A DNA stretch of 64,000 nt from Candidatus Dojkabacteria bacterium (GCA_030950485.1 JAUZRK010000003.1:20228-84227); one strand, 5' to 3'. Shown: positions 10,641 through 63,435, counted from the stretch's first letter. Notes: generated from the sequence alone by a model not told the origin. Program-made: numbers and translations.

Positions 10641-10641
10641 T

Positions 10642-12340: not shown

Positions 12341-12355
12341 ATAATTTTATCAAGA

Positions 12356-36006: not shown

Positions 36007-36032
36007 TTTACTTTGGACTTTCTACTTTTTAC

Positions 36033-36425: not shown

Positions 36426-36434
36426 GGATATAGT

Positions 36435-37043: not shown

Positions 37044-37127
37044 TACTAAAATTTGTAACTGTATTACTATCGCGTTCTACTATATTACTACTGTCTTACC
37101 ATTCTTTCTCATTGCCTTTTCTCCTTC

Positions 37128-37502: not shown

Positions 37503-37554
37503 ATTAAAAAAGTTAAGAGTTTTATATTTAGTGTTCTGTTTTAAAAGTCGCTAA

Positions 37555-38298
37555 CTATCCTATAATACTTCCTTCAAATGGTAAATTATTTAAAGCTTTA
37601 TTAATATCCTCGAAATCATAACCATGAAGTATAAAAATCTTAATTCCTGACTCTTTAGCATCTTTAGCTGCAATTGGATCTAATGGATAGTGTGCACCAG
37701 GTTTATGTTCATTAGTCCCAATAATATTAAAGTATTCTTCCCAACTTAATTTATCTATTCTTTCTGCTTCAAAGTCAATATTAGGATCTGCGGTATAAAC
37801 TCCATCTACGTCCTTTAAATCAAAAACAATACCTGTCTTTAAAATTTTCGCCATCTGAACAGCATTCCAGTCATTGCTCAAACCTGGTCTTGATGGAGCA
37901 GTTAAAATTACTTTTGTATCATTAAAATAAGTTGAAAGTTTTGCGTTCAAGATATTAGTCCCGCTATTAATTAAATCATCAAATTCCTGATACCGAATCA
38001 CTTGTTTATAAACCAAGTTATCTAATCTAGCATGTAGTAGTTCAGCATTTAAATTTGTAGTTGAAACACCAATTTTATGTAGATCATTAGTATCTTTCTC
38101 CCCTTTTTCACGGGCATAGTTCATATACTTTCTTGTAATAAAACCACCGCCTACATTTAGAGCTACGTTATACCCATTTGATGTTAATTCTTTTAAAAAG
38201 TTTTTTAATTTATCAGCGTATTCGTAATCGAAGAGTGTTTCTTCTGACCTAGATAGAAGTGAGCCGCCAACTTTTATTACTATATATTTATTATTCAT
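37555..38298 (-). CDS. Amino-acid-kinase-family protein, likely UMP kinase (archaeal-type PyrH)
   Basis: IVIKVGGSLL N-terminal P-loop-like block and ALNVGGGFITRKY (VVGGG..R motif). Confidence 0.5.
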   Translation of the reverse strand: MNNKYIVIKVGGSLLSRSEETLFDYEYADKLKNFLKELTSNGYNVALNVGGGFITRKYMNYAREKGEKDTNDLHKIGVSTTNLNAELLHARLDNLVYKQVIRYQEFDDLINSGTNILNAKLSTYFNDTKVILTAPSRPGLSNDWNAVQMAKILKTGIVFDLKDVDGVYTADPNIDFEAERIDKLSWEEYFNIIGTNEHKPGAHYPLDPIAAKDAKESGIKIFILHGYDFEDINKALNNLPFEGSIIG

Positions 38299-38346
38299 AA
38301 AAAAATAATACAGTTAAAAGAATAATTAATCTACAGAAATAGAAAA

Positions 38347-40136: not shown

Positions 40137-40197
40137 TAACTATGTTATGATTGAGTGATTTTATCACGATAGTATTTATCTTGAAATCTAAAAATAA

Positions 40198-40953
40198 ATG
40201 ATCAAACCAACAGAAAAAAAAGGGACTTTTATGAGCTTTCTTGATCAAAGAGGGCTAACTGAAAAAGGAGGTAGAGAACAAAGACTTTCAGAGATAACTG
40301 AAAAAATTAGAAATACATCAAAACTAGTACTAAAGGAGTTAAATGCTTATTTCTTAAATGATCCCTCAACTGTAGTTAGTAGTAATAATTTTAATAAGAT
40401 TGATGAGATATTAGATCAGACAATAGATATATGGGAGAAATTTAACTTTCCATTCCAAGATATGGTCTATATAAGAACTGCTTGGTTTAATAAAACTATA
40501 CAATTCAATTTCCCTTTCCAGACTTTCAAAAGAGATAAAAATGTACTAAAAGAAATAAAATCTTTTTTAGATGAAAATAATCCAGATCAAATAATAATTC
40601 ATCCAAGAGTATCGGATGAATATGCTTTAGGTAATTTAACTGGTATAAGAGCGCAAAGTGAAATAGAAGAAATCAACGTTGAAATCGCAAAAGATGGAAT
40701 TACTCACATTAGAGAAATGGAAAATAAAGCAAAGTATTATACATCTGGAAAAGTATCGGAATTATTAGACTCTACTGACAAATACCTTCATAGCTTCTTA
40801 AAGATATTGAGTTTCACTACAAAAGCAGGTGACTATTACTTACGAGATATCACAAAAGATGCACATCTTTCTCCTATTTATGAAATAAAAGGATTTAAAA
40901 TAAATGGAGAAACATTTCTAATCCTATTTGATTACGAGACAGAGCTAAGTTAG
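40198..40953 (+). CDS. Hypothetical protein (251 aa)
   Basis: ORF only; no recognisable motif. Confidence 0.45.
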   Translation: MIKPTEKKGTFMSFLDQRGLTEKGGREQRLSEITEKIRNTSKLVLKELNAYFLNDPSTVVSSNNFNKIDEILDQTIDIWEKFNFPFQDMVYIRTAWFNKTIQFNFPFQTFKRDKNVLKEIKSFLDENNPDQIIIHPRVSDEYALGNLTGIRAQSEIEEINVEIAKDGITHIREMENKAKYYTSGKVSELLDSTDKYLHSFLKILSFTTKAGDYYLRDITKDAHLSPIYEIKGFKINGETFLILFDYETELS

Positions 40954-41012
40954 ATTTGAAAATCAATTGATTCTAGCTTATCATTTACCTACTAAATATT
41001 AGATCTAACACT

Positions 41013-42335
41013 ATGTCTACTTACGATAAATATCTAAACTTACTTAAACAAATTATTCAGCTTAAAAGTGTGTCTACAGATCACTCTTTTAAAGACGAAT
41101 GTGCACTAACAGCTAAATGGTTAAACGAGTTATTTAATGATAATGGATTTGAAACTAAGATTCACGAGGGATATGGAAACCCAATAGTTGTTGCAAGCTA
41201 TGTTGCAGATGAATCTTTTGAGACTTGCTTAATCTACGGTCACTATGACGTTCAGCCAGCAGAAAAAGAGGATGGATGGAATCATGATCCATTTGATGTT
41301 TATGAAGAAAATGGAAGACTATATGCAAGAGGAGTTGTAGATAATAAAGGACAAGTTCTTATTCATATCGCAAATATAATAGACTTAATTAAAGATGGTA
41401 AGTTAGCTTACAATGTAAAATTTATGATCGAAGGTGATGAAGAAACTGGATCTCCAAAGCTACCTGATTTTATAAAGGAACATAAAGCTGATCTAGCTTG
41501 TGATTTCTTCTTAATTTCGGATGGTGAGATTATTAGTGATAATCCAGTAATTGATGCAGGGTTTCGTGGAGGTGCTAATACAAAGCTTGTAATTAAAACA
41601 GCTAGTACTGATCTTCATTCTGGATTATTCGGAGGAGTTGCTCCAAGTGCTGCACATGAAGCAGCTAAATTTGTTGCAAATCTTAAAGATTCAAACAATC
41701 AAGTTACTATTCCTGGGTTTTACGATGATGTTGATTCAATCTCTGATGAGATTCTTGAAAACAATAAAAATATTCCATTTGATATGGATGAAATAACTAA
41801 TATCACAGGTATAAAAGCTCTCAAGAATGAAGAAGGAGTAGATTACTATTCTCAAGTAGGTCTTAGACCAACAATTGAAGTAACCGGATTAGATTCTGGT
41901 TTTACTGATGAAGGTTATAGAAATAGTATTCCAGCACTTGCAACTGTTAAAGTTAATTTCAGGCTAGTTAAAAATCAGAATCCAAATGAAGTAATTGAAA
42001 AGTATAAGCAATATATTGCTTCAGTTATGCCAGAATATGTAGAATGGGATTTACAAGTTACAGATCCTTATGAAGCTTCAAAAATGAATTTAGATAATAA
42101 ATATGTACAAATAGTTAAAGATAAACTTACTAAATCATTTGGTAAGGCTCCTTACCTAGCATTTTCTGGAGGTGGATTACCAATTGTAATTCTATATCAA
42201 AAGTATTTAGGGACTGATGGAGTTTTAGCTGGTCTTGGAAATGCAGATTGTAATATGCACGGAACTAATGAGAATTATAATATCGATATTCTTAAAAAAG
42301 GATTGGAGTTTAGTAGATTGTTTTTTAGTAAATAA
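41013..42335 (+). CDS. Peptidase M20 family dipeptidase (ArgE/DapE/PepV-like)
   Basis: LIYGHYDVQPA..DGWNHDPF...RGVVDNKG, MIEGDEETGS and the dimerisation domain. Confidence 0.75.
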   Translation: MSTYDKYLNLLKQIIQLKSVSTDHSFKDECALTAKWLNELFNDNGFETKIHEGYGNPIVVASYVADESFETCLIYGHYDVQPAEKEDGWNHDPFDVYEENGRLYARGVVDNKGQVLIHIANIIDLIKDGKLAYNVKFMIEGDEETGSPKLPDFIKEHKADLACDFFLISDGEIISDNPVIDAGFRGGANTKLVIKTASTDLHSGLFGGVAPSAAHEAAKFVANLKDSNNQVTIPGFYDDVDSISDEILENNKNIPFDMDEITNITGIKALKNEEGVDYYSQVGLRPTIEVTGLDSGFTDEGYRNSIPALATVKVNFRLVKNQNPNEVIEKYKQYIASVMPEYVEWDLQVTDPYEASKMNLDNKYVQIVKDKLTKSFGKAPYLAFSGGGLPIVILYQKYLGTDGVLAGLGNADCNMHGTNENYNIDILKKGLEFSRLFFSK

Positions 42336-42343
42336 TAATAAAT

Positions 42344-42380
42344 AAGGGCTGGTTTTCAAAACCAGCCCTTTAAAATTTTT
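42344..42380 (+). terminator. Rho-independent terminator after the M20 peptidase gene
   Basis: aagggctgg-ttttcaaaa-ccagccctt followed by taaaatttttgttt. Confidence 0.75.
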
Positions 42381-42397
42381 GTTTAAACCAAACAAAT

Positions 42398-42652
42398 TTA
42401 ATACCCTACCCCCTTATCTCTCATCCATTTCAACCCTAAATAAATAGGAACTACTAAGAAAAAACCTATAATCAAAGTATTAAATATTCGAAGCATAAAT
42501 TCTCCAAATCCAGAACTATCTCCTAAATCAAATGGATAACCATATCCATAAGAACCTTTGAACATATTTACAACTAGAAAATTCCAAAACACAGAAAATA
42601 AAAATGAAATAATTGCTGCAAAACTACCGTATTGTTTTTTCTCTGGATCCAT
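42398..42652 (-). CDS. Small two-TM membrane protein (84 aa)
   Basis: Two hydrophobic helices; no motif. Confidence 0.4.
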   Translation of the reverse strand: MDPEKKQYGSFAAIISFLFSVFWNFLVVNMFKGSYGYGYPFDLGDSSGFGEFMLRIFNTLIIGFFLVVPIYLGLKWMRDKGVGY

Positions 42653-42703
42653 AAAATATCATTAATCAATTTAATTATCTGTACTAAATCTTACACTATT
42701 TAT

Positions 42704-44077
42704 TTATTCATTATCAAGATTATCATTACATAATTCTTTTATCTCATTCCAAGTTTTCTTTGTTGTAATATCCCAATCATACTTTTTAGAAACAATTTCT
42801 CCTTTCTTAATTACTTCATTCTTAGCATCTTCATCAGTCAAAAATTTAATTATTGCCTTCGATGTCTTTTCAATTTTAGTTGTATCAACTAAAAACGCCC
42901 CTCCATCTGTAATTTCTGGCAAACAAGATCTATTAGCAACAATTGATGGAATTCCAGCCTTCATAGCTTGAATAGGTCCAAATCCAAATCCTTCATAGTC
43001 AGATAGATAAATATATCCATCTGCTTTCATTAATGCAGTTACCAATTCTTCATCTGAAATAAATCCAGCTGCAACAATATTGTCTAAAACTCCTAATTTC
43101 TTAGCTTTACGAATAAATGATTTACCTAAATTATTTCTTCCTGTTATTTCTTTTCCTACACCAGGAGTTAAAGAACTTCCTGTAACGACTAAAAACTCAG
43201 GCAATTCTTTTTTCGATGAGTCAGAGATATTCTTAAAGATAGATAAAAGTCCATCTATTCCTTTATTCACTTCTAGACCAGAATCATAAAGAAGATAAGT
43301 CCTATGTCTTAAATTATATCTTTCAAGAGTTGCATTTATCATTGAAAGTTCTTCATCATACTTATCTTTTTCAAAAATTTCGTCTACTCCTAGATATATT
43401 GTTCTAATTCTATTATTTGGAACTTTTCCGTATGTAATTAAGTCATTCTTTGAAAAATTAGATGCAGTTAGAACTAGATCAGCTTTTTGTACACCTTCAA
43501 ACATAAAGTTATAAAACTTCTTCTTAATATAGTTTTGAATAAATCCCTTTTCTGAATATTTATCAAAAACTAATGGAATTACATCATGAGCTACAACTAC
43601 AGTTTTTGGCACTGTAACCAAGTTCTTTCTGAACCTTGGAACGCTTGGAAGTCCTCTTTCAAAATGAACAGCATAATAAATCTCTGGACTAATTGCATCA
43701 ATTATCTTATCGTAAGTTTTATCCCATCTAAAAATATTCTTTATATTTGATGGATATGCTTTTCCTAAGGAGTGGAAGATCAGTTTTTCGGAAATTTCAT
43801 TGATTGAAAGTTTAGAGTACTTTAGCTCATATAAATTTTTTTCTAAATCATCAAACCCAATTAAATGTATTTCCCATCCTCCTTCATTTAAAATCATTCT
43901 AAGCAGTCTTCTTATAATTTCTTTCCCATATCTACCAATACCTCTACCACTATACTGATCAAGTAAAAATGTTAAATCAATTAATATTTTACGCAAGGGC
44001 ACATCTGAATCTGACATTTTATATTTATAACTACTGGAATTATACTTCAAAAGTACTAATATTGATAATTTGAACAA
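42704..44077 (-). CDS. GT4-family glycosyltransferase (true start probably the internal MSDSDVPLRK...)
   Basis: C-terminal GT-B block EGFGFGPIQAMKAGIPSIVANRSCLPEIT (E-x7-E-like motif). Confidence 0.7.
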   Translation of the reverse strand: MFKLSILVLLKYNSSSYKYKMSDSDVPLRKILIDLTFLLDQYSGRGIGRYGKEIIRRLLRMILNEGGWEIHLIGFDDLEKNLYELKYSKLSINEISEKLIFHSLGKAYPSNIKNIFRWDKTYDKIIDAISPEIYYAVHFERGLPSVPRFRKNLVTVPKTVVVAHDVIPLVFDKYSEKGFIQNYIKKKFYNFMFEGVQKADLVLTASNFSKNDLITYGKVPNNRIRTIYLGVDEIFEKDKYDEELSMINATLERYNLRHRTYLLYDSGLEVNKGIDGLLSIFKNISDSSKKELPEFLVVTGSSLTPGVGKEITGRNNLGKSFIRKAKKLGVLDNIVAAGFISDEELVTALMKADGYIYLSDYEGFGFGPIQAMKAGIPSIVANRSCLPEITDGGAFLVDTTKIEKTSKAIIKFLTDEDAKNEVIKKGEIVSKKYDWDITTKKTWNEIKELCNDNLDNE

Positions 44078-44090
44078 TAGATAGAATCTA

Positions 44091-46478
44091 TTAAAATGGA
44101 GATTTATTTATTAAATCAAGAATGAAATCTAACTCAGTATTAAAATTTTCCACTGTAATACTACCGTTATTATATGTAAGAACCTTATCTCTATCTAAAG
44201 TAAATGAAGTTGAATGGGTTTTCCCATTGTCATTTATATTAATAAAATATTCTTCGCCCCATGATTTACCTGGATGTTTTTGAATTAACATTCTATAAAC
44301 TCTACCATTATCAATATAATTTAACTCATCTGGAAGGTCATAACTTACCTCTAGTGATTTTTCAATAATTGGATCATCTTCAGTTAATCTTCGATGGTCA
44401 AACCTAACTACATTCTCGCTAATCTGTTTATTTACAACTTCATCAAAGTAATCATATGGTTCATAGTAATGAGCCCCAGAAGCTTTATAACCTGTTGAGT
44501 CAAAATTCTCTGATCCATCAGGTGTAAAAAATCTAACCCAGGCTCTATATACGAACTTACCAGTTTTATCATATTGTAATTCTAATTCATCTTCGTAAAC
44601 TTTATCTTGTACCCAATCAACCTCAATATCCTTTGATATGTTACCTGATGAATCAATATTTATATTTTGAGTTACAGAGTCTCTTAAGTACTTATTTATC
44701 TTCAAAGAACAGTTTTGTGCCTCACTGAAATGGAAATAATCACCGTTAAATATTTGCTCTATTCTCCCATCCATTCCGTATGTATCGAAATAGTTTTGTA
44801 AAGCTACGTCGTCAGAAATTAATGCTAAATCCTTTGCATAAAAGCTTTGGATTAGTATTTCAACTAAATCTAGCCCTTCATCCACTTCTAATTCAGCTGC
44901 TCTATTACCTATAGCACTAGCAATATCTTCAATGATTTGCTTTCTCTCGCTGCTAAAGGCTTTCTCAGGATCATCTGTATCTTGTTTAATAAAATCAAAT
45001 AGTGTCTCGGCGTTAACTGTACCAAATCCTTCAACTTCAAGTGGTTGTAAAACTTCTAATAGGTTTTCTGCAAAAGAAAAGTTACCAACAATTATATGAT
45101 CGTATGGAGGAAATTCTTCTGGATAATATAAATTTGCAAGATCATAATAATCTGAAAATATTTGTGCTGTTAGATTTAGATCCGGATAAAGTCCTACGTC
45201 CTGAGCTCTTAAAATAGTTGCCCCACAACTATTATTAAAACTATTCATAAGATATGACTGTCCGTAAATATTTTGATAGTATCCAGAGTAAGGACTCACG
45301 TAAGGTGGGATTTCCTCTAATTCATAAAAATTATCAGGACCAGTATCAACTCCAACACTAAATCTATTAAAATTTTCTAAGTTCCAAGTATCTGTTAGAG
45401 ACACGTTATCAACTTCACCATCTGTTATTGAAAGTGTTCCATAAACCGTAATTAACCCTCCTGATGACCTCATCTCTGCTTCATTTTGAAGAATTAATAA
45501 ATAAGTGACTGTCTCTTTAGAACCAATAAGGTTAGGTACCTCTCTTAAGAATTCAGCAGTTTCTCTAGATGTATTTGGGAAATCTCTAGCAATGTCTTGT
45601 AAGTCTATTAACATACCTTTTGCTTTTATGTTTCTTATGTTTGGTACATAAGTCGGATCTACAAGCTCAAGTTCTTTTACTATATCAAGTATGTCAGGCT
45701 CTAATCTTTCATATAAATCGATGTATTCATCTAGATCAGACATTATTAGGTTTATTGAATTTTCTTCTTTATTTTCAGCTAATAAAGAATCATCTGTACC
45801 TCCTGTAAATGTAGTGAATTCTGGCTCGCTATTAATTATCAATGGTTGAGAAGGATCTGTTCTAAAGCCAGATGCAGCAAGTAAATCAATAAGCTGTGGC
45901 ATTGCATCATCTATAAGTAAATTTGATTTAATTATAATGCTATTAGCTACTTCTAAATTATTGTAATAGCCTTCTGTAAAGGAAAGTGTCTTTAAAAAGC
46001 TAAAATTTTCCAATTCACCATTAATAGTATCCATTTCCGATTGGATTATATCTATCTGTTCATTTAATCGACTTACATCTTTATTTGCAAAATCAGTCTG
46101 AATTTGATTTAAAGTAACTTTAATATTACTTGCTGATGCTTTTATCCTTAATAAAGGTGAAATGATATTAATGTAAGAAAATATACCTACTACAACTAAA
46201 ACAAGTCCTAGGATTGTAAATATTTTTTTAAAGTTTCGTTTATTCTTTGTTTTTAATGTCTTTTTGGGTGTTTTTTTAGATCTCTGATTAACAGATTTTT
46301 TTTCTTCTTTCTGACTATTCTGAAATGAAAGTCTATCAATTTTCTTTTTTTTTGAAGCTTTAGTTTTATCTCCTATCTTTATCTTACGATCACTTTCAGA
46401 CGTAACCCTTTCCATAGAGACATCATTTCCTTTAGCTATATTTTTCTTTTCTTCCTTTGTTAGAAACATAATACTCAC
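44091..46478 (-). CDS. Large membrane-anchored protein (795 aa): Lys-rich cytoplasmic N-terminus, single TM, large extracytoplasmic domain
   Basis: N-terminus extremely K-rich (KKKKIDRLSFQNSQKEEKK...KTKNKRNFKK), then TM FTILGLVLVVVGIFSYINIISPL; start codon 14 nt downstream of the GT4 gene stop. Confidence 0.5.
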   Translation of the reverse strand: MSIMFLTKEEKKNIAKGNDVSMERVTSESDRKIKIGDKTKASKKKKIDRLSFQNSQKEEKKSVNQRSKKTPKKTLKTKNKRNFKKIFTILGLVLVVVGIFSYINIISPLLRIKASASNIKVTLNQIQTDFANKDVSRLNEQIDIIQSEMDTINGELENFSFLKTLSFTEGYYNNLEVANSIIIKSNLLIDDAMPQLIDLLAASGFRTDPSQPLIINSEPEFTTFTGGTDDSLLAENKEENSINLIMSDLDEYIDLYERLEPDILDIVKELELVDPTYVPNIRNIKAKGMLIDLQDIARDFPNTSRETAEFLREVPNLIGSKETVTYLLILQNEAEMRSSGGLITVYGTLSITDGEVDNVSLTDTWNLENFNRFSVGVDTGPDNFYELEEIPPYVSPYSGYYQNIYGQSYLMNSFNNSCGATILRAQDVGLYPDLNLTAQIFSDYYDLANLYYPEEFPPYDHIIVGNFSFAENLLEVLQPLEVEGFGTVNAETLFDFIKQDTDDPEKAFSSERKQIIEDIASAIGNRAAELEVDEGLDLVEILIQSFYAKDLALISDDVALQNYFDTYGMDGRIEQIFNGDYFHFSEAQNCSLKINKYLRDSVTQNINIDSSGNISKDIEVDWVQDKVYEDELELQYDKTGKFVYRAWVRFFTPDGSENFDSTGYKASGAHYYEPYDYFDEVVNKQISENVVRFDHRRLTEDDPIIEKSLEVSYDLPDELNYIDNGRVYRMLIQKHPGKSWGEEYFININDNGKTHSTSFTLDRDKVLTYNNGSITVENFNTELDFILDLINKSPF

Positions 46479-50432: not shown

Positions 50433-50879
50433 CTAACTTAGAAAGCTATCGATTAATAACTTCTTTGAATATGATTCATTTAAACCTCTAGACTTTATAT
50501 AATCTAGTAGTTCACGATCTAGATATCCAATAGTTGCCCCATGTCCAGCTTTAACCTCATCCTCAGTTATCTCTAAACTTGGAATAACTCTTGCTCTTGA
50601 TGTTTCATCGATAAGAAGACACCTTATAGTTAAGTATGAATCGACATTCTTAGCTCCTTTTTCTATTTTCAACATTCCATTCATATTAAAATACCCTCCT
50701 CTATATACAATTGCTTTTATTAAAATATCTGACTTTACGTCCCTATTTCTATGTATAAATACTGCATTTAAATTTAGGACTTCACCCTCATTCACTACAA
50801 AAGTACCTCTTATCTCTGAATCGACATTTACATTAATTGTAATATCTTCTTCTTTTGAATTTAGATTAATTTGCTTCAT
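50433..50879 (-). CDS. Orphan SufB/SufD C-terminal-domain protein (148 aa)
   Basis: SRARVIPSLEITEDEVKAGHGATIGYLDRELLDYIKSRGL matches the conserved SufBD C-terminal block; the N-terminal beta-helix region is absent. Confidence 0.55.
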   Translation of the reverse strand: MKQINLNSKEEDITINVNVDSEIRGTFVVNEGEVLNLNAVFIHRNRDVKSDILIKAIVYRGGYFNMNGMLKIEKGAKNVDSYLTIRCLLIDETSRARVIPSLEITEDEVKAGHGATIGYLDRELLDYIKSRGLNESYSKKLLIDSFLS

Positions 50880-51491: not shown

Positions 51492-54407
51492 TTATAAATT
51501 GCTTTCTCTTATTGAAAATTTCTTCAATGATAAAACATTTTGAAAGTTGAAATATATATTAGGATCGAATTCGATTAATAAGGTTGGCTGTAAAGAATTT
51601 GCGAATCTATTTACATCTCTATCTAAGTTAATATTGTAACCAAATAATACCCCTTTTATATATAATCCATCTCCCTTTCTATTGATATCTGGATAATCTC
51701 TAGTTGTTATTATATCCCCATCTGATATTAAACTTGCTTCTATTATATCGTAGCTTGCTAGTGTTGGATCCAATACATCTAAGTCTGTTTTTAAATCACC
51801 GTTTAATATTTCTATGTTTCCCTTTACTATAAACATGCAGGCATCTTTTTGATTCAATGTCGTAAAGTCTGGTTCAATTGTTAAATTTCCCGTTATTAAT
51901 ACTATTGCTGGTTCATTACATATACTGTCTTTCTGTATTCGCATATTTCCATTTACTCTATATAATCCTTCATTATTTGGCAATCCCGGTAACTCTGTTG
52001 CTGCTGTTCCTAAGACGTTTCCTTCCACGTCATTAATACCAAGAACCTTAGAACAGTCTCTAAAACATGTAAAGCTTGTTTCATTTGCATCACATTTCCC
52101 ATCTCCACATATACCTGTAGTTTGACAATCATTAGGACAAGTTAATGTATTCTCTCCAAATATTGACTCACAAATACCATCATTATCACATGTGTCTTGA
52201 TTTCCTGTAATACAATCTCCCGGACAACTACTTGTATCTTCTCCACTCTCACATGTTCCATTATTATTACATCCTAAATCCTGACAATCATTAGGACATG
52301 TTATAAAGTCTTCTCCTAATGGACCTTCACAAACACTATTATTATTACATACCTCTACTCTACAAAATGTATCGCATCCATCTCCATCTACTAGATTTCC
52401 ATCATCACATTCTTCTGTATTTTGTCTTATTGCATCTCCACAAACTCCATTCTTATTATTATTTCCTGGGGTTCCAATTAATCTTCCATTTATTTCTACA
52501 TCACTATTTACCTCTATTACACTATCTGATTTACTTGAAAAGATTAGATATTCAATTTGTTTATAGAAGCTTCCTTTGTCTAAGATTAGTTCTGTTAATG
52601 TGTTATCTGAATAACTTCCTAATACTTGATTATATTTTGAGAATCTTGTTCTATCTGAACTTACTCCTCCATCTACAGTTATGTATTCTGATAGAAATGA
52701 TTGTTCATCTATATCAAACTCTGGTATTGTAATTCTTGCATCTGGTACTGATATTCCACTAAATCCACTATTTGCTAGTGTTGAGTTTCCAACAACCATT
52801 ATCCATGGTTTCTTTAAAAATGGTGAGGTTATTGTTCTTTTTATTGTTGATGGATTACATGCATTATCTTCTCCATTTATTTCGAATGCATAATTTGATT
52901 CTAGTCTATATTCTATATCTGCATAGTTATGCGTTCCTAGATTACCTAGATTAATTAGTGCATCTTGTTGTGTATTTGCTGTTGGAAAGTTAAAGATTGT
53001 AGGGATTGTATTATCTCTTAGTTGACTTCCGTCTTTATTTGATTCTACTAGACTACTGAAAGCTTTCATTCCTGAGTATGTATCATTTGCTCCGAATGTT
53101 ACCTCAAATGAATTATCTGAAAGATAATTAGCTGCACTTACACTTAGTGCTGGTGATGCTGTGTCTACTCCCCATACTACTGCTGTTGCTGTTAATGGAT
53201 TTATTCTTGAATATCTTAATCTTTCATTTCCTGTTGCATTTGATGAAAACAATACGCCATCTCCTGCTTCTGTTGCTACCATTGAGTAGACATCATATTC
53301 TTTATTTACAAAGTTATCTTTGAATTCTATTGCTATTGTACTTTCTCCACCTGTTAGATTTCTATTCCAATTTGTATTTACTCCAACTGACTTTAGAGCT
53401 GAGTTATTTGCAAAGTTATTTATATCTCCTCCATTTGCTACTGGAGTTTGTAATACTAGTTTTCCTGAATTATCTAACATGAATATTTCTCCTGTTATTA
53501 CATTTATATTTACTAGTATTGAATTATTATTTGCTACTGATGATCTTAGACTTGCTTCATCTATTACATCTGTAAATGTATTTCTTGGTACTAGTGCTAC
53601 TGATGTATATATGTTTGATCCTGGGTTTTCTACATTGTAGCTAAGCTTAAATGTTATTGGATTGCTTGTCCCTACATTATTTATGCTTCCTGAGATTCCC
53701 ACTCCGCAAACATCATTCCATGCCGCTCCTGCGTCTATCCCAAACTCTGTTATCTCTGGCCTCTTTGCTGTTGTGAAACTCCAAGTAGCTGAGTTAGCAG
53801 ATCTACTTCCGTTTTCTGTCCTAACAAACCATTGATAAGTAGTTTCCCAGTTTAAGCCTGCTAGATTTCTAGCAGTAGTTGAAGGAGGTAAATTGGCAGC
53901 CGCTGTAAGCCATGAAGCACTTCCTTGTACTCTGTAAAAAACATCATAATTATTATTATTTCCTGGGCAACCTTTTCCCCAACTAGATGTAGGATTCCAA
54001 TCTAATAATACTGAAGTTAAAAGACCACTAGAACCATTTGATGGGGAGGCTAAACTTACAGCGGCAGGGTTAGTAGAATTACAAGAAGGTATACAGCTTC
54101 CACTTGAACAAGCTGTCCCTGTATTACTGCAGTCTCCCTTATCCCAAGTATATTGGTTTATTTGCCCACCTACACTACAAGTAGCATCACAGTTAGAAGT
54201 GCCATTTGCATAACAATAATTAGAACAAGCAGCCTGACCAGGACAACTTACACATTCTCTAGGTCTACTACCTTCACACCACTTAGCTCCAACTCCTCTA
54301 CCTCCGCATGAATCGCAAGCATTAACAGTATTAAGCGATACCGCACCAAATAGTGTAAGACCAAAAGCTATGATTAAAAAAGAAATAATTATTTTAAAAT
54401 TTTTCAT
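51492..54407 (-). CDS. Large secreted cysteine-rich surface protein (971 aa) with Myxococcus-type cysteine-rich repeats
   Basis: Signal peptide MKNFKIIISFLIIAFGLTLFGAVS. Numerous Cys pairs at the N-terminus. Repeat CGDAIRQNTEECDDGNLVDGDGCDTFC followed by iterated ...C.NDG.CE.....E....TCPNDCQ units. Confidence 0.65.
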   Translation of the reverse strand: MKNFKIIISFLIIAFGLTLFGAVSLNTVNACDSCGGRGVGAKWCEGSRPRECVSCPGQAACSNYCYANGTSNCDATCSVGGQINQYTWDKGDCSNTGTACSSGSCIPSCNSTNPAAVSLASPSNGSSGLLTSVLLDWNPTSSWGKGCPGNNNNYDVFYRVQGSASWLTAAANLPPSTTARNLAGLNWETTYQWFVRTENGSRSANSATWSFTTAKRPEITEFGIDAGAAWNDVCGVGISGSINNVGTSNPITFKLSYNVENPGSNIYTSVALVPRNTFTDVIDEASLRSSVANNNSILVNINVITGEIFMLDNSGKLVLQTPVANGGDINNFANNSALKSVGVNTNWNRNLTGGESTIAIEFKDNFVNKEYDVYSMVATEAGDGVLFSSNATGNERLRYSRINPLTATAVVWGVDTASPALSVSAANYLSDNSFEVTFGANDTYSGMKAFSSLVESNKDGSQLRDNTIPTIFNFPTANTQQDALINLGNLGTHNYADIEYRLESNYAFEINGEDNACNPSTIKRTITSPFLKKPWIMVVGNSTLANSGFSGISVPDARITIPEFDIDEQSFLSEYITVDGGVSSDRTRFSKYNQVLGSYSDNTLTELILDKGSFYKQIEYLIFSSKSDSVIEVNSDVEINGRLIGTPGNNNKNGVCGDAIRQNTEECDDGNLVDGDGCDTFCRVEVCNNNSVCEGPLGEDFITCPNDCQDLGCNNNGTCESGEDTSSCPGDCITGNQDTCDNDGICESIFGENTLTCPNDCQTTGICGDGKCDANETSFTCFRDCSKVLGINDVEGNVLGTAATELPGLPNNEGLYRVNGNMRIQKDSICNEPAIVLITGNLTIEPDFTTLNQKDACMFIVKGNIEILNGDLKTDLDVLDPTLASYDIIEASLISDGDIITTRDYPDINRKGDGLYIKGVLFGYNINLDRDVNRFANSLQPTLLIEFDPNIYFNFQNVLSLKKFSIRESNL

Positions 54408-56276: not shown

Positions 56277-57164
56277 ATGAGAGGTAAAGAAATTATAAAA
56301 CAAAATGACTTAGTATATGCTCTTAGAGCAACTTCAAAAGATGCTAATGCCTCAGATGAATTTAAGTCTAGTTTACTAAACAAACTAAACCTAGAACTTA
56401 ATAGTAAGGGTGCAGTAAAGGTAAATGAACTTGAAATATCTTTAGAAGGATTTAAAAAAGTTAAATATTATAAAGCAGGAAACTCTGAGGAAGTATTATT
56501 ATTTATTCATGGAATCGGCACAATTGATAAGTTATATACTAAATTTATAAATTACTTTTCTAAAAAATATACTGTAATAGCACCTGCTTTACCTGGCTAT
56601 GGAACTTCTTTAGAAGATTGGTTCAAAACTAATAACTACAGTAAGGCTTTAGATAGCTATGCACTATTTGTAGAAAAATTTGTCAAATCTTTAAATTTAG
56701 ATAAACCAATTACACTTGTTGGTCACTCTTTTGGCGGTGCTGTTGCTATTAGATATGCTAAGAAAAACGAAAATCAAAAGCTTATAAAAAAGCTAGTTTT
56801 AGCAGATACTGAAAAAATACCTGTGGATATGAGTCTAAAAAGTTTCATTTATGGAAGTTTTAAGGCTCAGCTTTCTTACTTAAGAAGACTTAAAGTTAAA
56901 AACATAAGCATACTTAATTTCTTTATTAAAAATATAAGGAATTTAGTAGATACTTATAAGATTGCTTTTAATATTAATCTAGAAAAAGAGATAGAAGGAC
57001 TTAGATCTGATACAAAATTCTATCTTAACGATGAAAATGAAATCACACCTCTTAAGAAAATTAAAGAAGTTAAAGATATTATTAAAAATGTATCTGTAAG
57101 TGTAGTGAACTATCCAGAAGAAAGCTGGTTCTATGATTCACCAGAAAAAATCAAACTGTCTTAG
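56277..57164 (+). CDS. Alpha/beta-fold hydrolase
   Basis: Nucleophile elbow LVGHSFGGAVA (GxSxG) and N-terminal HGIG oxyanion region; start overlaps the sigma factor stop (TAAATGA). Confidence 0.6.
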   Translation: MRGKEIIKQNDLVYALRATSKDANASDEFKSSLLNKLNLELNSKGAVKVNELEISLEGFKKVKYYKAGNSEEVLLFIHGIGTIDKLYTKFINYFSKKYTVIAPALPGYGTSLEDWFKTNNYSKALDSYALFVEKFVKSLNLDKPITLVGHSFGGAVAIRYAKKNENQKLIKKLVLADTEKIPVDMSLKSFIYGSFKAQLSYLRRLKVKNISILNFFIKNIRNLVDTYKIAFNINLEKEIEGLRSDTKFYLNDENEITPLKKIKEVKDIIKNVSVSVVNYPEESWFYDSPEKIKLS

Positions 57165-57538
57165 CTGTCTAAATTCTTGTTTTGAGAAAGCAATTTTATT
57201 TCTTGTAGTTGCTTTCTAATTTCTCTTAAAGCTACTTCAACTGCTCTTAATCTAGAAGATACTTTATAATCTCTAGGATCTGAACCTAGAAAAAAAGTAA
57301 TTGGTTTTTTGAACAAGTCTGCTAGCTGAATTAATTTGTCGATTGGTGGCGCAATTCTACCTGCTTCGTAACCACTTATTGTTTTATCTGAAACACCTAG
57401 TGAAACTCCAACTTTTAACTGCGACATTCTTGCTTCATCTCTAGCCATTTTAATCCTAATACCTAACTCTCTCGTTATATCTTTCTTTCTCTGCTCCTCT
57501 TGCCTAAAAATTAGATCATTTATTCCGTTTGGTCTCAT
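57161..57538 (-). CDS. XRE-family helix-turn-helix transcriptional regulator
   Basis: SQLKVGVSLGVSDKTISGYEAGRIAPPIDKLIQLADLFKKPITFF is a classic Cro/C1-type HTH. Confidence 0.65.
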   Translation of the reverse strand: MRPNGINDLIFRQEEQRKKDITRELGIRIKMARDEARMSQLKVGVSLGVSDKTISGYEAGRIAPPIDKLIQLADLFKKPITFFLGSDPRDYKVSSRLRAVEVALREIRKQLQEIKLLSQNKNLDS

Positions 57539-57661: not shown

Positions 57662-58663
57662 TTATTTCGCTTTCTTCTGACTTTTTATACCTCCTGCATT
57701 AACTTCATAAGAGGTATTTACTGCTTCAAAAAAATTCACTAATTGGAATGTATCATTTGCAGTACTCATCCATTTAGCTGGATTTGAAACTTTAAATTCT
57801 GGTTCAAATCCAAGTTCTTCTAATCTTCTATCCGCAACGTATTGAACATACTGATTTATAAAATTTGTATTTAATCCAAGTATTCCCTTTGGAAGTAGCG
57901 CCTTATTGTAATTCATCTCAAGCTCAACAGCCTCAACAATTATATTTCTAATTTCATCTGCAAAATCATTTGTAACAATATCTGGATTCTCCTCCAAAAC
58001 TGTCAATATCATATTAATACCTACTTTTAAGTGAAGAGCTTCGTCTCTAGAAATCCAGTCAGTAATTGTTGCAAAATTTCTAAGTAATTTTCTTTGTCTA
58101 AAATTCAAAGCAAACATAAATCCTGAATAAAACCAAACACCTTCAGTTACAATATTGGTTTTTACAATATTTCTAACAAAATCTTTTTTTCCTTCCTCAG
58201 TCTCAACATCTATTCCTTCTATCATTTTCTCTATTGAACTCATTAGAAATTCCTCCTTTACTCTTACTTCAGGAACATCAATATGAGTATTGAAAGCTTT
58301 CTTTCTATCAATTTCAAGAGTGTTTATAACATAGTCAAATGCTAATGCATGATTCACCTCTTCCCACATCTGCCTTACTAAATACATTTTTACTTCCGGT
58401 GCTGCAATGTGATTAAGCATACCGTATGTAATTGATTCATTTACATCATATTCCATTGGATTAGAAAACCCAATATACATAATAACGGCATTTTTTTCTT
58501 CTTCACTCATTCCCATCCAGTCTTGAATATCTTCTGCCATAGGAGCCTCATGCGGAAACCAGGTATTTGCTATAGCTTGATCTAGAAGTTCTTGTGCCCA
58601 TTCATATTCTATTTCATTTAGTTGAAGCTCATCTCCTTGATTTCTTTTTTTTAATAATGCCAT
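57662..58663 (-). CDS. nrdB: Ribonucleotide reductase small subunit, class Ic-like (R2c; Phe at radical-Tyr position, Glu at first metal ligand)
   Basis: Ferritin-like diiron motifs ..WEEVNHALAF.. (ExxH) and ..SRDEALHL.. (ExxH). Aligned to E. coli R2 ETIHSRSY the residue at H+4 is Phe, not Tyr. The first ligand block FSNPMEYDVNESI aligns to FISNLKYQTLLDSI, giving Glu in place of Asp84. Confidence 0.8.
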   Translation of the reverse strand: MALLKKRNQGDELQLNEIEYEWAQELLDQAIANTWFPHEAPMAEDIQDWMGMSEEEKNAVIMYIGFSNPMEYDVNESITYGMLNHIAAPEVKMYLVRQMWEEVNHALAFDYVINTLEIDRKKAFNTHIDVPEVRVKEEFLMSSIEKMIEGIDVETEEGKKDFVRNIVKTNIVTEGVWFYSGFMFALNFRQRKLLRNFATITDWISRDEALHLKVGINMILTVLEENPDIVTNDFADEIRNIIVEAVELEMNYNKALLPKGILGLNTNFINQYVQYVADRRLEELGFEPEFKVSNPAKWMSTANDTFQLVNFFEAVNTSYEVNAGGIKSQKKAK

Positions 58664-58720
58664 TTGAATAATTTAATGATTTAATCTACTTATGTTTATG
58701 CTGTCATATTAAGTTTAACA

Positions 58721-58748
58721 TAGACTTATCATTCATAAGATAAGTCTA
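58721..58748 (-). other. Intercistronic 10-bp stem-loop between nrdA and nrdB
   Basis: tagacttatc-attcataa-gataagtcta, a perfect inverted repeat in the 106-bp nrdA-nrdB spacer. Confidence 0.5.
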
Positions 58749-58769
58749 TAATATTAAGTTCTAAAAGAA

Positions 58770-61760
58770 TTATTGGCATGACTCGCAGTCAGCCCTTTCT
58801 GCAGGGTCTACTGGACAAGCTGTACCAAATACAAGAGTATCACTCTTACTATCTATTTTACTAGTCTGCTTTGCATTAATTCTTTCGTTTTCTGGCTTAT
58901 ATTTTGGCCTAGAAACATTTCCAAATCCTACTCTTGCACCTCCACCTGGAGTTACAGTCGGAGCTTTAACTTCGATCTCTTCTTTATTATCGGGTTTCGC
59001 AAAACCAAATCCTTTTACAGTTTTTGAATTATCTAAAGTTGGTTGTTCATATCTCTTAATGCCACCAAAACCTTTTTTATCAATCTTCTTTGCTTTGTTA
59101 ACCTTGATTGTACTCTGTTCTGCTGTATGTCTTGGCTTTGAGTGTAGATAATAAGTTGTCTTTACTCCTCTTCTCCACGCATCAACATAAATTTCAACCA
59201 TTTCATCAATATCTCTAGTTTCAAGATACATATTTCTACTCATTGCCTGATCCACCCATTTCTGAGCTCTAGAAGCAACCTCTATATAAGCATATGGGGA
59301 AATCTGAAAAGATGTTTTATAAATATCTTTAAGATGCTGTGGAATTTCATCTATATTAGAAATATCTCCATAGTTTTCTAAAACTTTATCTTTCAATTCA
59401 TCCCAAAGACCTAATTCTTTAAGATCTTTTACTAGGTTATGGTTAATATCCAAGAACTTACCATTAGAAGTTGATCTACTGAAAATTTGTGAGAATCTTG
59501 GGTCAATTCCTGGGGAAGTACCAAGCACTAGTCCAGTAGAAGCATTAGGCGCAATTGCCATAGTAGTTGCATTTCTAATACCTCTTTTAACTCTCTCTCT
59601 TAGTTTATTCCAGTCTAATCTTATAGTTCTATCTTGTGTTAATTCAATACCTTCTCCTGGTTTTAAATACTCAGTAGTTTCAGAATTTTTCAGGGCAGAA
59701 ACTTTAGTTGCTGTAATTTCACCAGTTTCAGTTTTCTTACTTTGATCATTTTGATCAATTACGCTGGCCAACATTCCAAAAATTTCATATAAGTCTTTAC
59801 TTTCTTTTGAAGATGCTCCATTAATTCCATCTTCAATTTTATTTCTTATTTGCTCTAGAATTGTCTTTTCTTTAGATACATTTTCATCGTTCTCTGGTTT
59901 TATTTCTGAATAGTTTTTATTAATTTTTTCTATTTCTGTACCTTCTTTAAAAGAGATTCCTAATCTATCAAGAGAAACCTTTTCAACTGTATCAACAGGA
60001 ACATATCCCTTTGACCACATTGATCCTTCAAAATTATTATACGCTCCTCTTTCATCAGCTAAATTACAGCTTTCATCTATTGAAATATAGCTTACAAATT
60101 CAAATACTCTATCTGTAAGTTCAAAAGCCTCGTCTGAATCATATGAAACTCCTAATTTCTCAAATGCCTCTGATAGTCCAGATAAACCCATTCCTACAGC
60201 TCTATTATTATAATCAGAGTTATAAGTTTCTTTTAACGGAGATTTATTTACATCTCCCAAGTTATCCAAATGTCTCATTGTGACTCTTACAGTTTCCTCT
60301 AATAAATCCCAGTCAACTTTATTCTCTATACCTCCATCAGCCTCAAGAGTTAAGTGATTTGTTAGATTTACATATGCAAGATTACATACGGCAATATTAT
60401 CTCTATCTGTTGGTAAAGTAATTTCTGTACATAGATTAGAACAATGTATAGTTCCAGTGTTATTGTTTAATGCCCTTAAATTTATTGTATCTTTCCATGT
60501 TAACCAAGGATGAGCTGTACTTAATAAAGCTGTCAATATCTGTTTCATTTGTTCTCTCGCAGGAACAACTTTGAAATTATTGATTTCGCCAGACTTTGCC
60601 ATTTCTATATACTCTGAGTACCTATTGCTAAATTCATATCCATATAACTCAGTCAGATCTCTACAGTCATCTGGATTAAACATATACCATTCTTCATTAT
60701 TTATTACTCTTTTCATGAACTCATCAGAAATATAAACTGCAGTATTTGCAGTTCTTAATCTTCTATAATCATCTCCAGCATTTTGTCTTAAATCAACAAA
60801 TTCTGGAAAATTTATATGCCAATTCTCCATATAGATAGCCATCGCCCCTGTTTTCTTCCCAGCCCTAGACATTGATTTTAAAGCAGTATCCATTACTTTT
60901 ATAAAAGGAATAGGCCCAGTAGACATAGTATTATTAGACCTTACCTGAGAACCTGCTGATCTTAATTTACTTACTGAAATACCAATTCCTCCAGTTGCCT
61001 TTGAAATCAAAGCTACATTCTTTACATTATCAAATATATGGTTTGTATCATCTTCAGTATCTAAAAGGTAACAGTTACTTAATACTGAAAAAGTAGTACC
61101 AGCTCCAATATTTGTAGATCCTCCAGGAATATATAGTTGTTTTGATAACTTGTCGTAAAAGATTTTTGCTTGCTTTGTTGGCTCACTTTCTTCTAAAGAC
61201 ATTCCCATAGCTATTCTCATCCAAAGGTATTGAGGAGTCTCAAGAAGCTTTTGCTCTCTATTTCTCAACATATACCGATTCGTAGCTGTAGTAAGTCCTA
61301 CAAACTTAAATATGTCATCATTATTTAACATTAAAGCATTAGCAAGTTGGTTCAAATCAAATTTTTCCACTAGCTCTCTATTTAGAAGTTTTAATTCAAC
61401 TCCTTGGTGTATATTTTCTTTAAAACTTTCTCTATATGCAGTAACAAAATTATCATGATCCTTTATATTTAGTATCTCTTTATAATTCTTTAAGTTTAAA
61501 AAACGAGTAGCCAATCTGTCATACTCAACATCGTGTTGGATATTTTGTGTAGTTACTAATATTGCAGTTTCTAAAAGCTGATCAATGTCCATGTCTTCAA
61601 ACACTGTAAGCTCTAGCTCCTCTAATATAGTTTCAACTTTTTCTGCTCTATTAGATAAATCAGCAGTTAACTCATTAAGAATATTTGAAAAAGAATCCCT
61701 ATTAAACGGTACTAGATTTCTCAAATTTCTAAGAGTTTTTATATTAATTAGGCTATTCAT
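58770..61760 (-). CDS. nrdA: Ribonucleotide reductase large (alpha) subunit, class I
   Basis: Active-site block HCSNLCTEITLPT, GGIGISVSKLRSAG finger-loop region, C-terminal Cys pair ...DCESCQ; directly upstream of nrdB. Confidence 0.85.
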   Translation of the reverse strand: MNSLINIKTLRNLRNLVPFNRDSFSNILNELTADLSNRAEKVETILEELELTVFEDMDIDQLLETAILVTTQNIQHDVEYDRLATRFLNLKNYKEILNIKDHDNFVTAYRESFKENIHQGVELKLLNRELVEKFDLNQLANALMLNNDDIFKFVGLTTATNRYMLRNREQKLLETPQYLWMRIAMGMSLEESEPTKQAKIFYDKLSKQLYIPGGSTNIGAGTTFSVLSNCYLLDTEDDTNHIFDNVKNVALISKATGGIGISVSKLRSAGSQVRSNNTMSTGPIPFIKVMDTALKSMSRAGKKTGAMAIYMENWHINFPEFVDLRQNAGDDYRRLRTANTAVYISDEFMKRVINNEEWYMFNPDDCRDLTELYGYEFSNRYSEYIEMAKSGEINNFKVVPAREQMKQILTALLSTAHPWLTWKDTINLRALNNNTGTIHCSNLCTEITLPTDRDNIAVCNLAYVNLTNHLTLEADGGIENKVDWDLLEETVRVTMRHLDNLGDVNKSPLKETYNSDYNNRAVGMGLSGLSEAFEKLGVSYDSDEAFELTDRVFEFVSYISIDESCNLADERGAYNNFEGSMWSKGYVPVDTVEKVSLDRLGISFKEGTEIEKINKNYSEIKPENDENVSKEKTILEQIRNKIEDGINGASSKESKDLYEIFGMLASVIDQNDQSKKTETGEITATKVSALKNSETTEYLKPGEGIELTQDRTIRLDWNKLRERVKRGIRNATTMAIAPNASTGLVLGTSPGIDPRFSQIFSRSTSNGKFLDINHNLVKDLKELGLWDELKDKVLENYGDISNIDEIPQHLKDIYKTSFQISPYAYIEVASRAQKWVDQAMSRNMYLETRDIDEMVEIYVDAWRRGVKTTYYLHSKPRHTAEQSTIKVNKAKKIDKKGFGGIKRYEQPTLDNSKTVKGFGFAKPDNKEEIEVKAPTVTPGGGARVGFGNVSRPKYKPENERINAKQTSKIDSKSDTLVFGTACPVDPAERADCESCQ

Positions 61761-61809: not shown

Positions 61810-61857
61810 ATACTATATGTTGTGTCAGTAAACTAGTCTAAACACAAAATATTGTAC
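61810..61857. promoter_or_regulatory. Two NrdR-box-like 16-bp palindromes, ~32 bp centre to centre, in the nrdA promoter region
   Basis: atactatatgttgtgt (61810-61825; 14/16 to acaCwAtATaTwGtgt) and acacaaaatattgtac (61842-61857; 13/16), 50-100 bp upstream of the nrdA start. Confidence 0.5.
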
Positions 61858-62391: not shown

Positions 62392-63435
62392 ATGAATTTA
62401 CTTAAAATAAAAAATACCGTATCAGTAGTAGGTGCACTTGCTATTGCTTTCGGAGGATTTGTAGCTTTTTCTGCTAATTCTAATAGAGTTAACGCTGCAG
62501 CTGTTGCAGTAACAGCATCTCCTATTGAGTTTGCTGCTACAACAGCAACAGATGTTACTGTTTCTTTCACTTCAGGTGCTGAATATGCTATCGGTGAAAC
62601 TATTGTTTTAGATGTTGTTTCATCTTCAGCAGCTACACTAGGTGGTGCTTTAACTGACTGTGGTACTGCTACAACAACTGTAGGAGGTGGAGCAGGATCT
62701 TTTGGATTCTCATCTGGAACAGCAACTTATACATTCTCAGCTGCTTCAACAACAGCAACAACAACTGCATCACTATGTATTAGGTTCCCAGCTACAACAG
62801 CTCAAGGTTCTTACTCAATTTCACTAACAGACTCTGTTGGAAACTTCGGAGCTGAATTAGTATACGTAGGAAATGATAACGATGTATTCGTTTCTGCTAT
62901 CGTACGACCAACTTTATCTTTCAATATTAGAAATATAACTGACACTGCAGATACAAATGTTTGTGCTATGGGTGCTGTTGATACATCTTCTCTTCCAACT
63001 GCTGACGCAACAGTTACAGCTGGAGAAGGAGAGTGTGGTTATTCATTAGCTATTGCTACAAATGCAGCTAATGGATTCCAAGCTACTATTCAAGCTGATC
63101 AAGTTTTCCAAAATGGAGCTGCTGATACTATTGCTAACGTTACAAATGGTGCTGCATTCTCAGCAGGTACTGAGGCTTACGGTTTAGCTTGGGTTAACCC
63201 TGGAACAGCTGCTGCTGGTGAAGGTATTACTGAGAACGGAAATTTCTCTACTAACTCTACACCTGTACCACTTTCAGCTACTAATTTCATCTCTGGAACT
63301 GGACCTGTAACTTATACAGCAGGTACTGATGCTACAGATGTAACAGAAGTTGTTCACGGTTTCGCAGTAAGTTCAGCTACTAATACTGGACTATACTCTC
63401 ATACTATTACTTACTATGTAGACGCTACATTCTAA
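62392..63435 (+). CDS. Secreted Thr/Ala/Gly-rich surface protein (347 aa) with codon usage typical of a highly expressed gene
   Basis: Signal peptide (VSVVGALAIAFGGFVAFSANSNRVNAAA). Body dominated by A/T/G/S with GCT/GGT/ACT codons. No LPXTG or C-terminal TM. Confidence 0.6.
   Translation: MNLLKIKNTVSVVGALAIAFGGFVAFSANSNRVNAAAVAVTASPIEFAATTATDVTVSFTSGAEYAIGETIVLDVVSSSAATLGGALTDCGTATTTVGGGAGSFGFSSGTATYTFSAASTTATTTASLCIRFPATTAQGSYSISLTDSVGNFGAELVYVGNDNDVFVSAIVRPTLSFNIRNITDTADTNVCAMGAVDTSSLPTADATVTAGEGECGYSLAIATNAANGFQATIQADQVFQNGAADTIANVTNGAAFSAGTEAYGLAWVNPGTAAAGEGITENGNFSTNSTPVPLSATNFISGTGPVTYTAGTDATDVTEVVHGFAVSSATNTGLYSHTITYYVDATF

Follow-up and report, generated by a model that had tools for sequence, protein, structure and literature searches.

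A 64,000-nucleotide stretch of DNA from Candidatus Dojkabacteria bacterium (GCA_030950485.1 JAUZRK010000003.1:20228-84227), referred to here as the window, carries at positions 57662-61760 what we judge, with a probability of roughly 0.85, to be an intact and native nrdA-nrdB operon for an oxygen-dependent class I ribonucleotide reductase (RNR) whose beta subunit is of the class Ic type and lacks a tyrosyl radical. Both genes are intact, and the metal-binding, radical-transfer and catalytic residues are all present and conserved. The assignment of NrdB to the class Ic type by sequence is made with high confidence. A Mn(IV)/Fe(III) cofactor, proposed by analogy, is held with lower confidence because NrdB is 37% identical to the founding Chlamydia trachomatis protein and appears to belong to a distinct lineage carrying the same Glu/Phe signature. 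Additionally, a putative operator for the regulator NrdR lies upstream of nrdA.

Operon layout and gene identity

The interval consists of two open reading frames (ORFs) on the minus strand, nrdA first and nrdB 106 bp downstream, and the ends and starts of both coincide exactly with the operon placement given in an earlier note on this DNA.

58770-61760, minus strand: nrdA, class I RNR large (alpha) subunit, 996 residues
57662-58663, minus strand: nrdB, class I RNR small (beta) subunit, class Ic-type (Glu/Phe), 333 residues

Profile matches identify both products. NrdB matches Pfam PF00268 (Ribonuc_red_sm) with an E-value of 1.9e-67 and scores 309.7 bits against a cutoff of 237 with NCBIfam NF007186, the equivalog model of the RNR beta subunit. 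In NrdA, the barrel domain is recognized by PF02867 (Ribonuc_red_lgC, E-value 5.6e-156) and the all-alpha domain by PF00317 (Ribonuc_red_lgN, E-value 6.8e-16), and the RNR alpha equivalog model NF005101 gives 1087 bits against a cutoff of 988. The catalytic core of NrdA is retained: Cys230 and Cys459, the counterparts of E. coli Cys225 and Cys462, are both kept, together with the finger loop and the radical-transfer dyad listed below.

60423-60437, minus strand: N442-L-C444-T-E446, catalytic finger loop corresponding to E. coli Asn437/Cys439/Glu441, invariant in 42 sequences
59148-59153, minus strand: Tyr870-Tyr871, radical-transfer dyad corresponding to E. coli Tyr730/Tyr731, placed by alignment with E. 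coli NrdA

The G+C content is about 31% across the whole window. Given that nrdAB resembles its neighboring genes in both G+C and G+C at third codon positions, the operon looks native; horizontal acquisition of nrdAB, checked by composition, was rejected on the same two measures. The nrdA-nrdB gene order is also kept in relatives.

The exact NrdB sequence is held by NCBI as MDQ6985023.1 and MDQ7020285.1, from a metagenome-assembled genome of Candidatus Dojkabacteria bacterium, under the label 'ribonucleotide-diphosphate reductase subunit beta'. The exact 996-residue NrdA was not found in a collection of 15 billion proteins, in which the top match was 63% identical; the public record of that genome may lack an annotation for NrdA or mark it as a pseudogene.

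Signature residues of NrdB

The residues of NrdB were mapped with HMMER, BLASTP and MAFFT, the last run with 119 database homologues. The references were E. coli NrdB, taken from NC_000913, and residues 23-339 of C. trachomatis R2, rebuilt from the HMMER alignment to PDB 1SYY. All three methods agree on the positions below.

58559-58561, minus strand: Trp35, radical/electron-transfer tryptophan corresponding to E. coli Trp48 and C. trachomatis Trp51, invariant
58451-58453, minus strand: Glu71, metal ligand 1 in the motif PMEYDV, corresponding to E. coli Asp84 and C. trachomatis Glu89
58337-58360, minus strand: E102-V-N-H105-A-L-A-F109, metal ligands 2 and 3 with phenylalanine where other R2 proteins have the radical tyrosine
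58142-58144, minus strand: Glu174, metal ligand 4, corresponding to E. coli Glu204 and C. trachomatis Glu193, invariant
58031-58042, minus strand: E208-A-L-H211, metal ligands 5 and 6, corresponding to E. coli Glu238/His241 and C. trachomatis Glu227/His230, invariant
57707-57709, minus strand: Tyr319, C-terminal inter-subunit radical-transfer tyrosine corresponding to E. coli Tyr356 and C. trachomatis Tyr338, invariant (120/120)

Phe109, the last residue of EEVNHALAF (residues 101-109), pairs with E. coli Tyr122 and C. trachomatis Phe127 in the HMMER, BLASTP and MAFFT alignments, which bears out the earlier proposal that phenylalanine replaces the radical-harboring tyrosine in this motif. Glu102 and His105 pair with E. 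coli Glu115/His118 and C. trachomatis Glu120/His123. The accompanying proposal of glutamate as the first metal ligand holds for the residue type, although not for the residue that had been named: the ligand is Glu71 in PMEYDV, and Glu76 in VNESI (58436-58438) lies five positions downstream. Glu76 aligns with E. coli Arg89 and C. trachomatis Asn94, in a column occupied by Lys, Glu, Gln, Asp, Arg or Leu among the 120 homologues.

The combination of Glu71 and Phe109 is present in all 120 of the closest homologues. Among representatives of clusters formed at 50% identity, every one of the closest full-length sequences is Glu/Phe, and the remoter ones comprise 45 with Asp/Tyr, seven with Glu/Tyr and seven with Glu paired with Val, Ile or Leu. 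Because Asp/Tyr is recovered for E. coli and for remoter representatives, the alignment procedure discriminates between the two states; the Glu/Phe signature is not a matter of chance but a conserved property of the NrdB lineage.

Assignment to class Ic

Class Ic beta subunits are defined by the Phe/Glu pairing, classes Ia and Ib by Tyr/Asp, and class Id by Tyr/Glu (PMC8463856). All the class Ic features that are readable from sequence were found in NrdB and its partner NrdA. The Phe/Glu pairing, the intact dimetal site, the radical pathway and the identity of the best solved relatives together sustain the original designation of a Chlamydia-type R2 without a radical tyrosine. When PDB sequences are ranked against NrdB, C. 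trachomatis R2c leads with 229 bits, followed by the Saccharopolyspora erythraea R2 with 196 bits; the next entry reaches 118 bits and E. coli NrdB about 82 bits. Furthermore, an AlphaFold2 model of NrdB with a predicted local distance difference test (pLDDT) score of 83 has as its top Foldseek matches the C. trachomatis NrdB structures with a Mn/Fe cofactor (4D8F, 4M1I), at template modeling (TM) scores of 0.86-0.88.

The other classes of beta subunit were considered and rejected. A class Ia or Ib protein is at odds with the presence of Glu71 and Phe109, and the corresponding NCBIfam models yield 87 and 80 bits against cutoffs of 346 and 355. For class Id, the radical site holds phenylalanine, not tyrosine, and the class Id entries in the PDB (6CWP, 6SF4) reach no more than about 40 bits. 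Class Ie, in which three glutamate ligands are substituted and the partners are NrdI and NrdE, is contradicted by the presence of all ligands and by a partner of the NrdA type. No nrdI was found among the neighboring genes examined, and Pfam scans of 30 other ORFs in the window detected no nrdD/G, nrdJ, nrdI, nrdH or other RNR genes.

Cofactor, lineage and alternative readings

The alternative that fares best accepts an R2 without a radical but equips it with a cofactor other than Mn(IV)/Fe(III), the candidates being a high-valent dimanganese cluster, as in class Id, and a diiron cluster, and has the Glu/Phe state of the Patescibacteria/Actinomycetota lineage arise separately from that of Chlamydia. 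We consider this unlikely, and the case for it is best seen among the observations that weigh against our own reading. NrdB is only 34-38% identical to the two characterized R2c proteins, those of C. trachomatis and S. erythraea. Moreover, a representative NrdB with the Asp/Tyr pair (P0258) shares 50% identity with C. trachomatis R2c, compared with 37-38% for the NrdB of the window. A bootstrapped neighbor-joining tree of 77 sequences, built with capped distances and including S. erythraea, places the window NrdB in an all-Glu/Phe clade that lacks both proteins, with a support of 29-48%; only its shallow nodes are supported, and its deep nodes are not, so that the placement is tentative. It superseded an earlier neighbor-joining tree that was unusable owing to saturated distances and zero bootstrap support. 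Additionally, C. trachomatis Tyr222, which we take to be an electron-relay residue specific to activation, is replaced by an invariant Trp203 in the subgroup of the window NrdB. No biochemical data were found for this NrdB or for any member of its subgroup, which spans 56-79% identity. Outside NrdB, the confidence of AlphaFold2 is low at the finger loop of NrdA, and regular-expression and tblastn searches found no nrdR gene in the 64-kb window.

The literature adds two points in favor of a different cofactor. Class Ic-like sequences are scattered among the NrdAz/NrdAq subclades (PMC9669993). The coordination sphere is common to di-iron, di-manganese and Mn/Fe proteins, and the metal is not predicted by it alone (PMC4118035). 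However, the first coordination sphere of NrdB is identical to that of C. trachomatis R2c, and its best sequence and structural matches are Mn/Fe NrdB structures. To our knowledge, all Glu/Phe R2 proteins characterized so far, namely those of C. trachomatis and S. erythraea, assemble Mn/Fe. Class Id proteins, for their part, retain tyrosine at the radical site (PMC8463856).

Given that the C. trachomatis protein is closer to an Asp/Tyr protein and that the window NrdB falls in a separate clade, the Glu/Phe state occurs in more than one lineage, and the transfer of the cofactor from one to another is not safe. The window subgroup, which comprises Patescibacteria and many Actinomycetota, is probably a lineage distinct from the Chlamydia one. 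Phylogenetic placement, to which the earlier note had pointed as a check on its class assignment, gives a mixed picture: C. trachomatis and S. erythraea provide the best PDB matches, and the tree sets NrdB in a clade without them whose deep nodes are unsupported. A still more far-reaching proposal is likewise unlikely. It combines an independent origin of the radical-less state in the Glu/Phe subgroup of Patescibacteria and Actinomycetota with a cofactor or activation route that differs from that of Chlamydia (for example, with Trp203 in place of Tyr222), and supposes that the Dojkabacteria alpha subunit lost allostery through its ATP-cone and gained a conserved helical-hairpin insertion serving as a new regulatory or oligomerization interface.

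A conventional Ia/Ib-like R2, in which a tyrosyl radical would reside on Tyr111 or Tyr72 and the apparent phenylalanine would be an artefact of alignment, is very improbable. Tyr111 does lie two residues past Phe109, and Tyr72 one residue past Glu71. Nevertheless, three independent methods set Phe109 opposite Tyr122/Phe127, with no gap between the EXXH motif and the site, and position 72 of NrdB is not conserved. The tyrosine of AFDY, whose location at the radical position had been offered in the earlier note as grounds for abandoning its proposal, does not occupy that position: Tyr111 aligns with E. coli His124 and with C. trachomatis Tyr129, a residue that exists in the radical-less Chlamydia enzyme.

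The idea that NrdB is an R2lox protein instead of an RNR beta subunit can hardly be entertained: R2lox proteins do have four glutamate ligands, lack a radical tyrosine and bind Mn/Fe (PMC4118035), and NCBIfam R2lox models match NrdB weakly, but these matches reach 20-56 bits against cutoffs of 194-315 whereas the RNR beta equivalog model exceeds its cutoff, nrdB follows an intact nrdA by 106 bp in an arrangement kept in relatives, Tyr319 and Trp35 are invariant, and all six metal ligands are intact, so that NrdB is not degenerate. A class Ic-type beta subunit, most plausibly with Mn/Fe, therefore remains our preferred reading.

Distribution of the subgroup

A scan of species-representative genomes recovered the same NrdB subgroup, at 56-79% identity, in Dojkabacteria, Saccharibacteria and other Patescibacteria, and in very many Actinomycetota, including Microbacteriaceae (Leifsonia, Clavibacter, Microcella, Salinibacterium), Demequina, Actinotalea and Flexivirga. 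The carriers are largely environmental organisms. The earlier note had linked the enzyme to a host-associated lifestyle exposed to oxidants and nitric oxide (NO), an idea that finds no footing here: nothing in the window points to host NO, and the subgroup is common in environmental Actinomycetota. The involvement of host NO is itself a hypothesis from the Chlamydia literature (PMC4118035).

A Glu/Phe NrdB is common to Patescibacteria (Dojkabacteria, Saccharibacteria) and many Actinomycetota at 56-60% identity. This pattern suggests horizontal transfer between the two groups. Saccharibacteria live as epibionts of Actinomycetes.

ATP-cone, insertion and C-terminal tail of NrdA

Three further regions of NrdA were delineated in addition to its catalytic core.

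61518-61742, minus strand: degenerate ATP-cone, residues 7-81, AlphaFold2 pLDDT 84-92
59634-59957, minus strand: insertion of about 100 residues in the barrel domain, residues 602-709, with a conserved helical core
58773-58817, minus strand: C-terminal Cys-rich tail CPVDPAERADCESCQ, motif ACPxDPxERxxCxxCQ conserved across the NrdA clade

No Pfam ATP-cone (PF03477) was detected in NrdA, even at E-values up to 10. Profile comparison of its N-terminus with the ATP-cone N-termini of relatives by hhalign, in turn, gave a probability of 98.7% and an E-value of 2.7e-16. The nucleotide-binding motif V-x-K-R-D-G is gone, and LRNLRNL stands at the KRDG site. KRDG is also missing in about 46 of the closest NrdA sequences, one from Nomurabacteria among them, and is present in many remoter ones. 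Since the alpha subunit retains only this degenerate cone, feedback by dATP on enzyme activity has probably been lost.

The insertion occurs only in NrdA proteins of the Dojkabacteria clade, where the roughly 30 closest sequences share the conserved core 'ESKELYEIF.QLT', and is absent from the NrdA of P. aeruginosa, E. coli, Nomurabacteria, Demequina and Saccharibacteria. AlphaFold2 predicts, with moderate confidence, a helical hairpin formed by helices 625-648 and 652-679 at a pLDDT of about 70. Toward the C-terminus, about 100 residues of low-complexity linker with low pLDDT precede the Cys-rich tail. The C-terminal cysteines of class I and II RNRs have an established role, and by analogy the tail probably relays reducing equivalents into the active site.

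Predicted NrdR operator and promoter

Upstream of nrdA, a pair of candidate NrdR boxes overlaps a promoter-like sequence.

61842-61857, minus strand: NrdR box 1 GTACAATATTTTGTGT, 13/16 consensus matches
61810-61825, minus strand: NrdR box 2 ACACAACATATAGTAT, 14/16 consensus matches, 50 bp upstream of the nrdA start codon
61835-61863, minus strand: sigma-70-like promoter TTGACA-17-TAGACT overlapping the NrdR boxes, 10/12, a pattern match only

An NrdR operator consists of two partially palindromic 16-bp boxes spaced 15-16 bp apart in the promoter of an RNR operon, with C4, A6, A8, T9, T11 and G13 conserved (PMC13584703). In the window, the boxes are separated by a 16-bp linker and the pair lies 50-97 bp upstream of nrdA, with all six of these highly conserved positions present in both boxes. 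A search for the paired pattern gave a single hit in the window and no hit in 100 shuffles. Of 64 related loci, 26 have an equivalent pair upstream of nrdA, and the remaining DNA of these loci, serving as a control, contained one pair in total, which amounts to an approximately 100-fold enrichment upstream of nrdA. NrdR probably represses transcription of nrdAB through this predicted operator.

NrdR is common in Patescibacteria, and one patescibacterial relative carries an nrdR-nrdA-nrdB operon (locus L027). A database search with a patescibacterial NrdR returned many NrdR proteins from the Candidate Phyla Radiation (CPR), none of them named Dojkabacteria among the top 120 matches. No riboswitch or other RNA was detected near the operon by Rfam at the gathering threshold or by ARAGORN, and a terminator scan found no terminator between nrdB and the helix-turn-helix (HTH) gene downstream of it.

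Proposed mechanism

The following scheme is put forward for the enzyme, and in it we infer the metal identity, the radical path, the loss of allostery and the binding of NrdR. Glu71, Glu102, His105, Glu174, Glu208 and His211 make up a complete dimetal site of six residues. By analogy with C. trachomatis NrdB, the oxidizing equivalent would be stored on the metal cluster itself (PMC8463856; PMC4118035), for which Mn(IV)/Fe(III) is the likeliest composition, Mn occupying site 1 next to Phe109. In each turnover, the hole would pass from Trp35 to Tyr319 in the beta subunit and on through Tyr871/Tyr870 to Cys444 in the alpha subunit, the cluster being reversibly reduced. Cys444 would then start nucleotide reduction, with electrons supplied by Cys230 and Cys459, and this pair would be re-reduced by the C-terminal CxxC tail. 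Transcription would probably be repressed by NrdR through the two boxes that overlap the promoter.

Neighborhood of the operon and other features of the window

An XRE-family HTH protein of 125 residues is encoded at 57161-57538 on the minus strand, 123 bp past the end of nrdB. A role as a regulator specific to the operon was rejected because the protein has no counterpart beside nrdB in any related locus, and the gene is probably unrelated to the operon. In one relative (locus L002), the gene downstream of nrdB encodes a DUF4012 protein, and genes for DUF4012, a GT1 glycosyltransferase, an amino-acid kinase and DUF2085 follow directly after nrdB (7108-13002 of that locus). Their counterparts in the window (35096-46478) lie 11-22 kb from nrdB, which indicates rearrangement.

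On the other side of the operon, a gene at 62392-63435 on the plus strand diverges from nrdA across a 630-bp spacer. It encodes a Thr/Ala/Gly-rich protein of 347 residues with an N-terminal hydrophobic, signal-like segment and no Pfam match, and its G+C is 0.40, compared with 0.31 for the window. Farther away, an ORF of 148 residues (50433-50879, minus strand) may be what is left of a truncated SufB/D gene: its match to the SufBD core domain is confined to the C-terminal half (positions 105-232), and the ORF overlaps the RNase HII gene at that gene's start. Three large ORFs on the minus strand, at 21180-24527 (1115 residues), 51492-54407 (971 residues) and 32441-34123 (560 residues), contained no Pfam domains except for a weak DUF4215 match in the 971-residue ORF. 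Across the 64 kb, Rfam at the gathering threshold and ARAGORN found no tRNA, no tmRNA and no member of any Rfam family.

Significance

This NrdB/NrdA pair adds one more, unexceptional member to a subclass of enzymes that is widespread and has been described before. The gain is one of annotation: the public record names only an RNR subunit beta, and the sequence specifies a class Ic type without a tyrosyl radical. A small-genome CPR bacterium is thereby implied to make its deoxynucleotides with an oxygen-dependent enzyme, one that by analogy probably requires Mn as well as Fe. The same Glu/Phe subgroup is found in hundreds of environmental Actinomycetota and Patescibacteria, and because it is so widespread in environmental taxa, an interpretation of R2c as an adaptation of pathogens to host NO is not readable from sequence alone. 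Furthermore, the degenerate ATP-cone, the clade-specific insertion and the NrdR operator provide modest leads on RNR regulation in the CPR.

Comparison with known systems

The closest characterized counterpart is the NrdB of C. trachomatis (R2c; 1SYY, 4D8F, 4M1I), the founding class Ic beta subunit, which uses a Mn(IV)/Fe(III) cofactor. It is both the best sequence match to the window NrdB (1SYY, E-value 8e-67) and the best fold match. The two share glutamate as ligand 1, phenylalanine at the radical site and the other five ligands, which are identical, as well as the pathway tryptophan and C-terminal tyrosine, the tyrosine two residues past the phenylalanine, and a C-terminal region of the form 'NFFE...Y'. 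They differ in overall sequence, at 37-38% identity, and at C. trachomatis Tyr222, where the window NrdB has Trp203. Moreover, the partner alpha subunit of Chlamydia possesses three ATP-cones (PMC9669993), whereas the alpha subunit of the window has one degenerate cone.

The S. erythraea R2 (PDB 6Y2N; PMC7467353) carries the same Glu/Phe signature, in the motifs TAESLV and HTHTFQY, and is the second PDB match, with a TM score of 0.85. However, it is 33-34% identical to the window NrdB and groups with the C. trachomatis protein (61% identical) instead. Among unstudied proteins, the NrdBs of Patescibacteria and Actinomycetota (Demequina, Leifsonia, Clavibacter, Saccharibacteria) are far nearer, at 56-79% identity, and have the Glu/Phe pair, the nrdA-nrdB order and NrdR boxes; their annotation, too, goes no further than 'ribonucleotide-diphosphate reductase subunit beta'. 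Unlike the NrdA of the window, most alpha subunits of these orthologues have a recognizable ATP-cone and lack the insertion.

For NrdA, the best solved relative is the class Ia NrdA of P. aeruginosa (5IM3; NrdAz-type), matched with 555 bits and an E-value of 3e-165, and the two have in common the barrel, the catalytic residues and the Tyr-Tyr dyad. In the P. aeruginosa enzyme, the N-terminus of the alpha subunit carries two ATP-cones and the beta subunit has the Asp/Tyr pair, and the alignment with the window NrdA begins only past those cones. The window NrdA differs further in an insertion of 108 residues between P. aeruginosa positions 736 and 743 and in a longer C-terminal tail. Finally, the predicted regulatory site resembles known NrdR operators in its canonical spacing, in the six conserved positions and in its overlap with the promoter.

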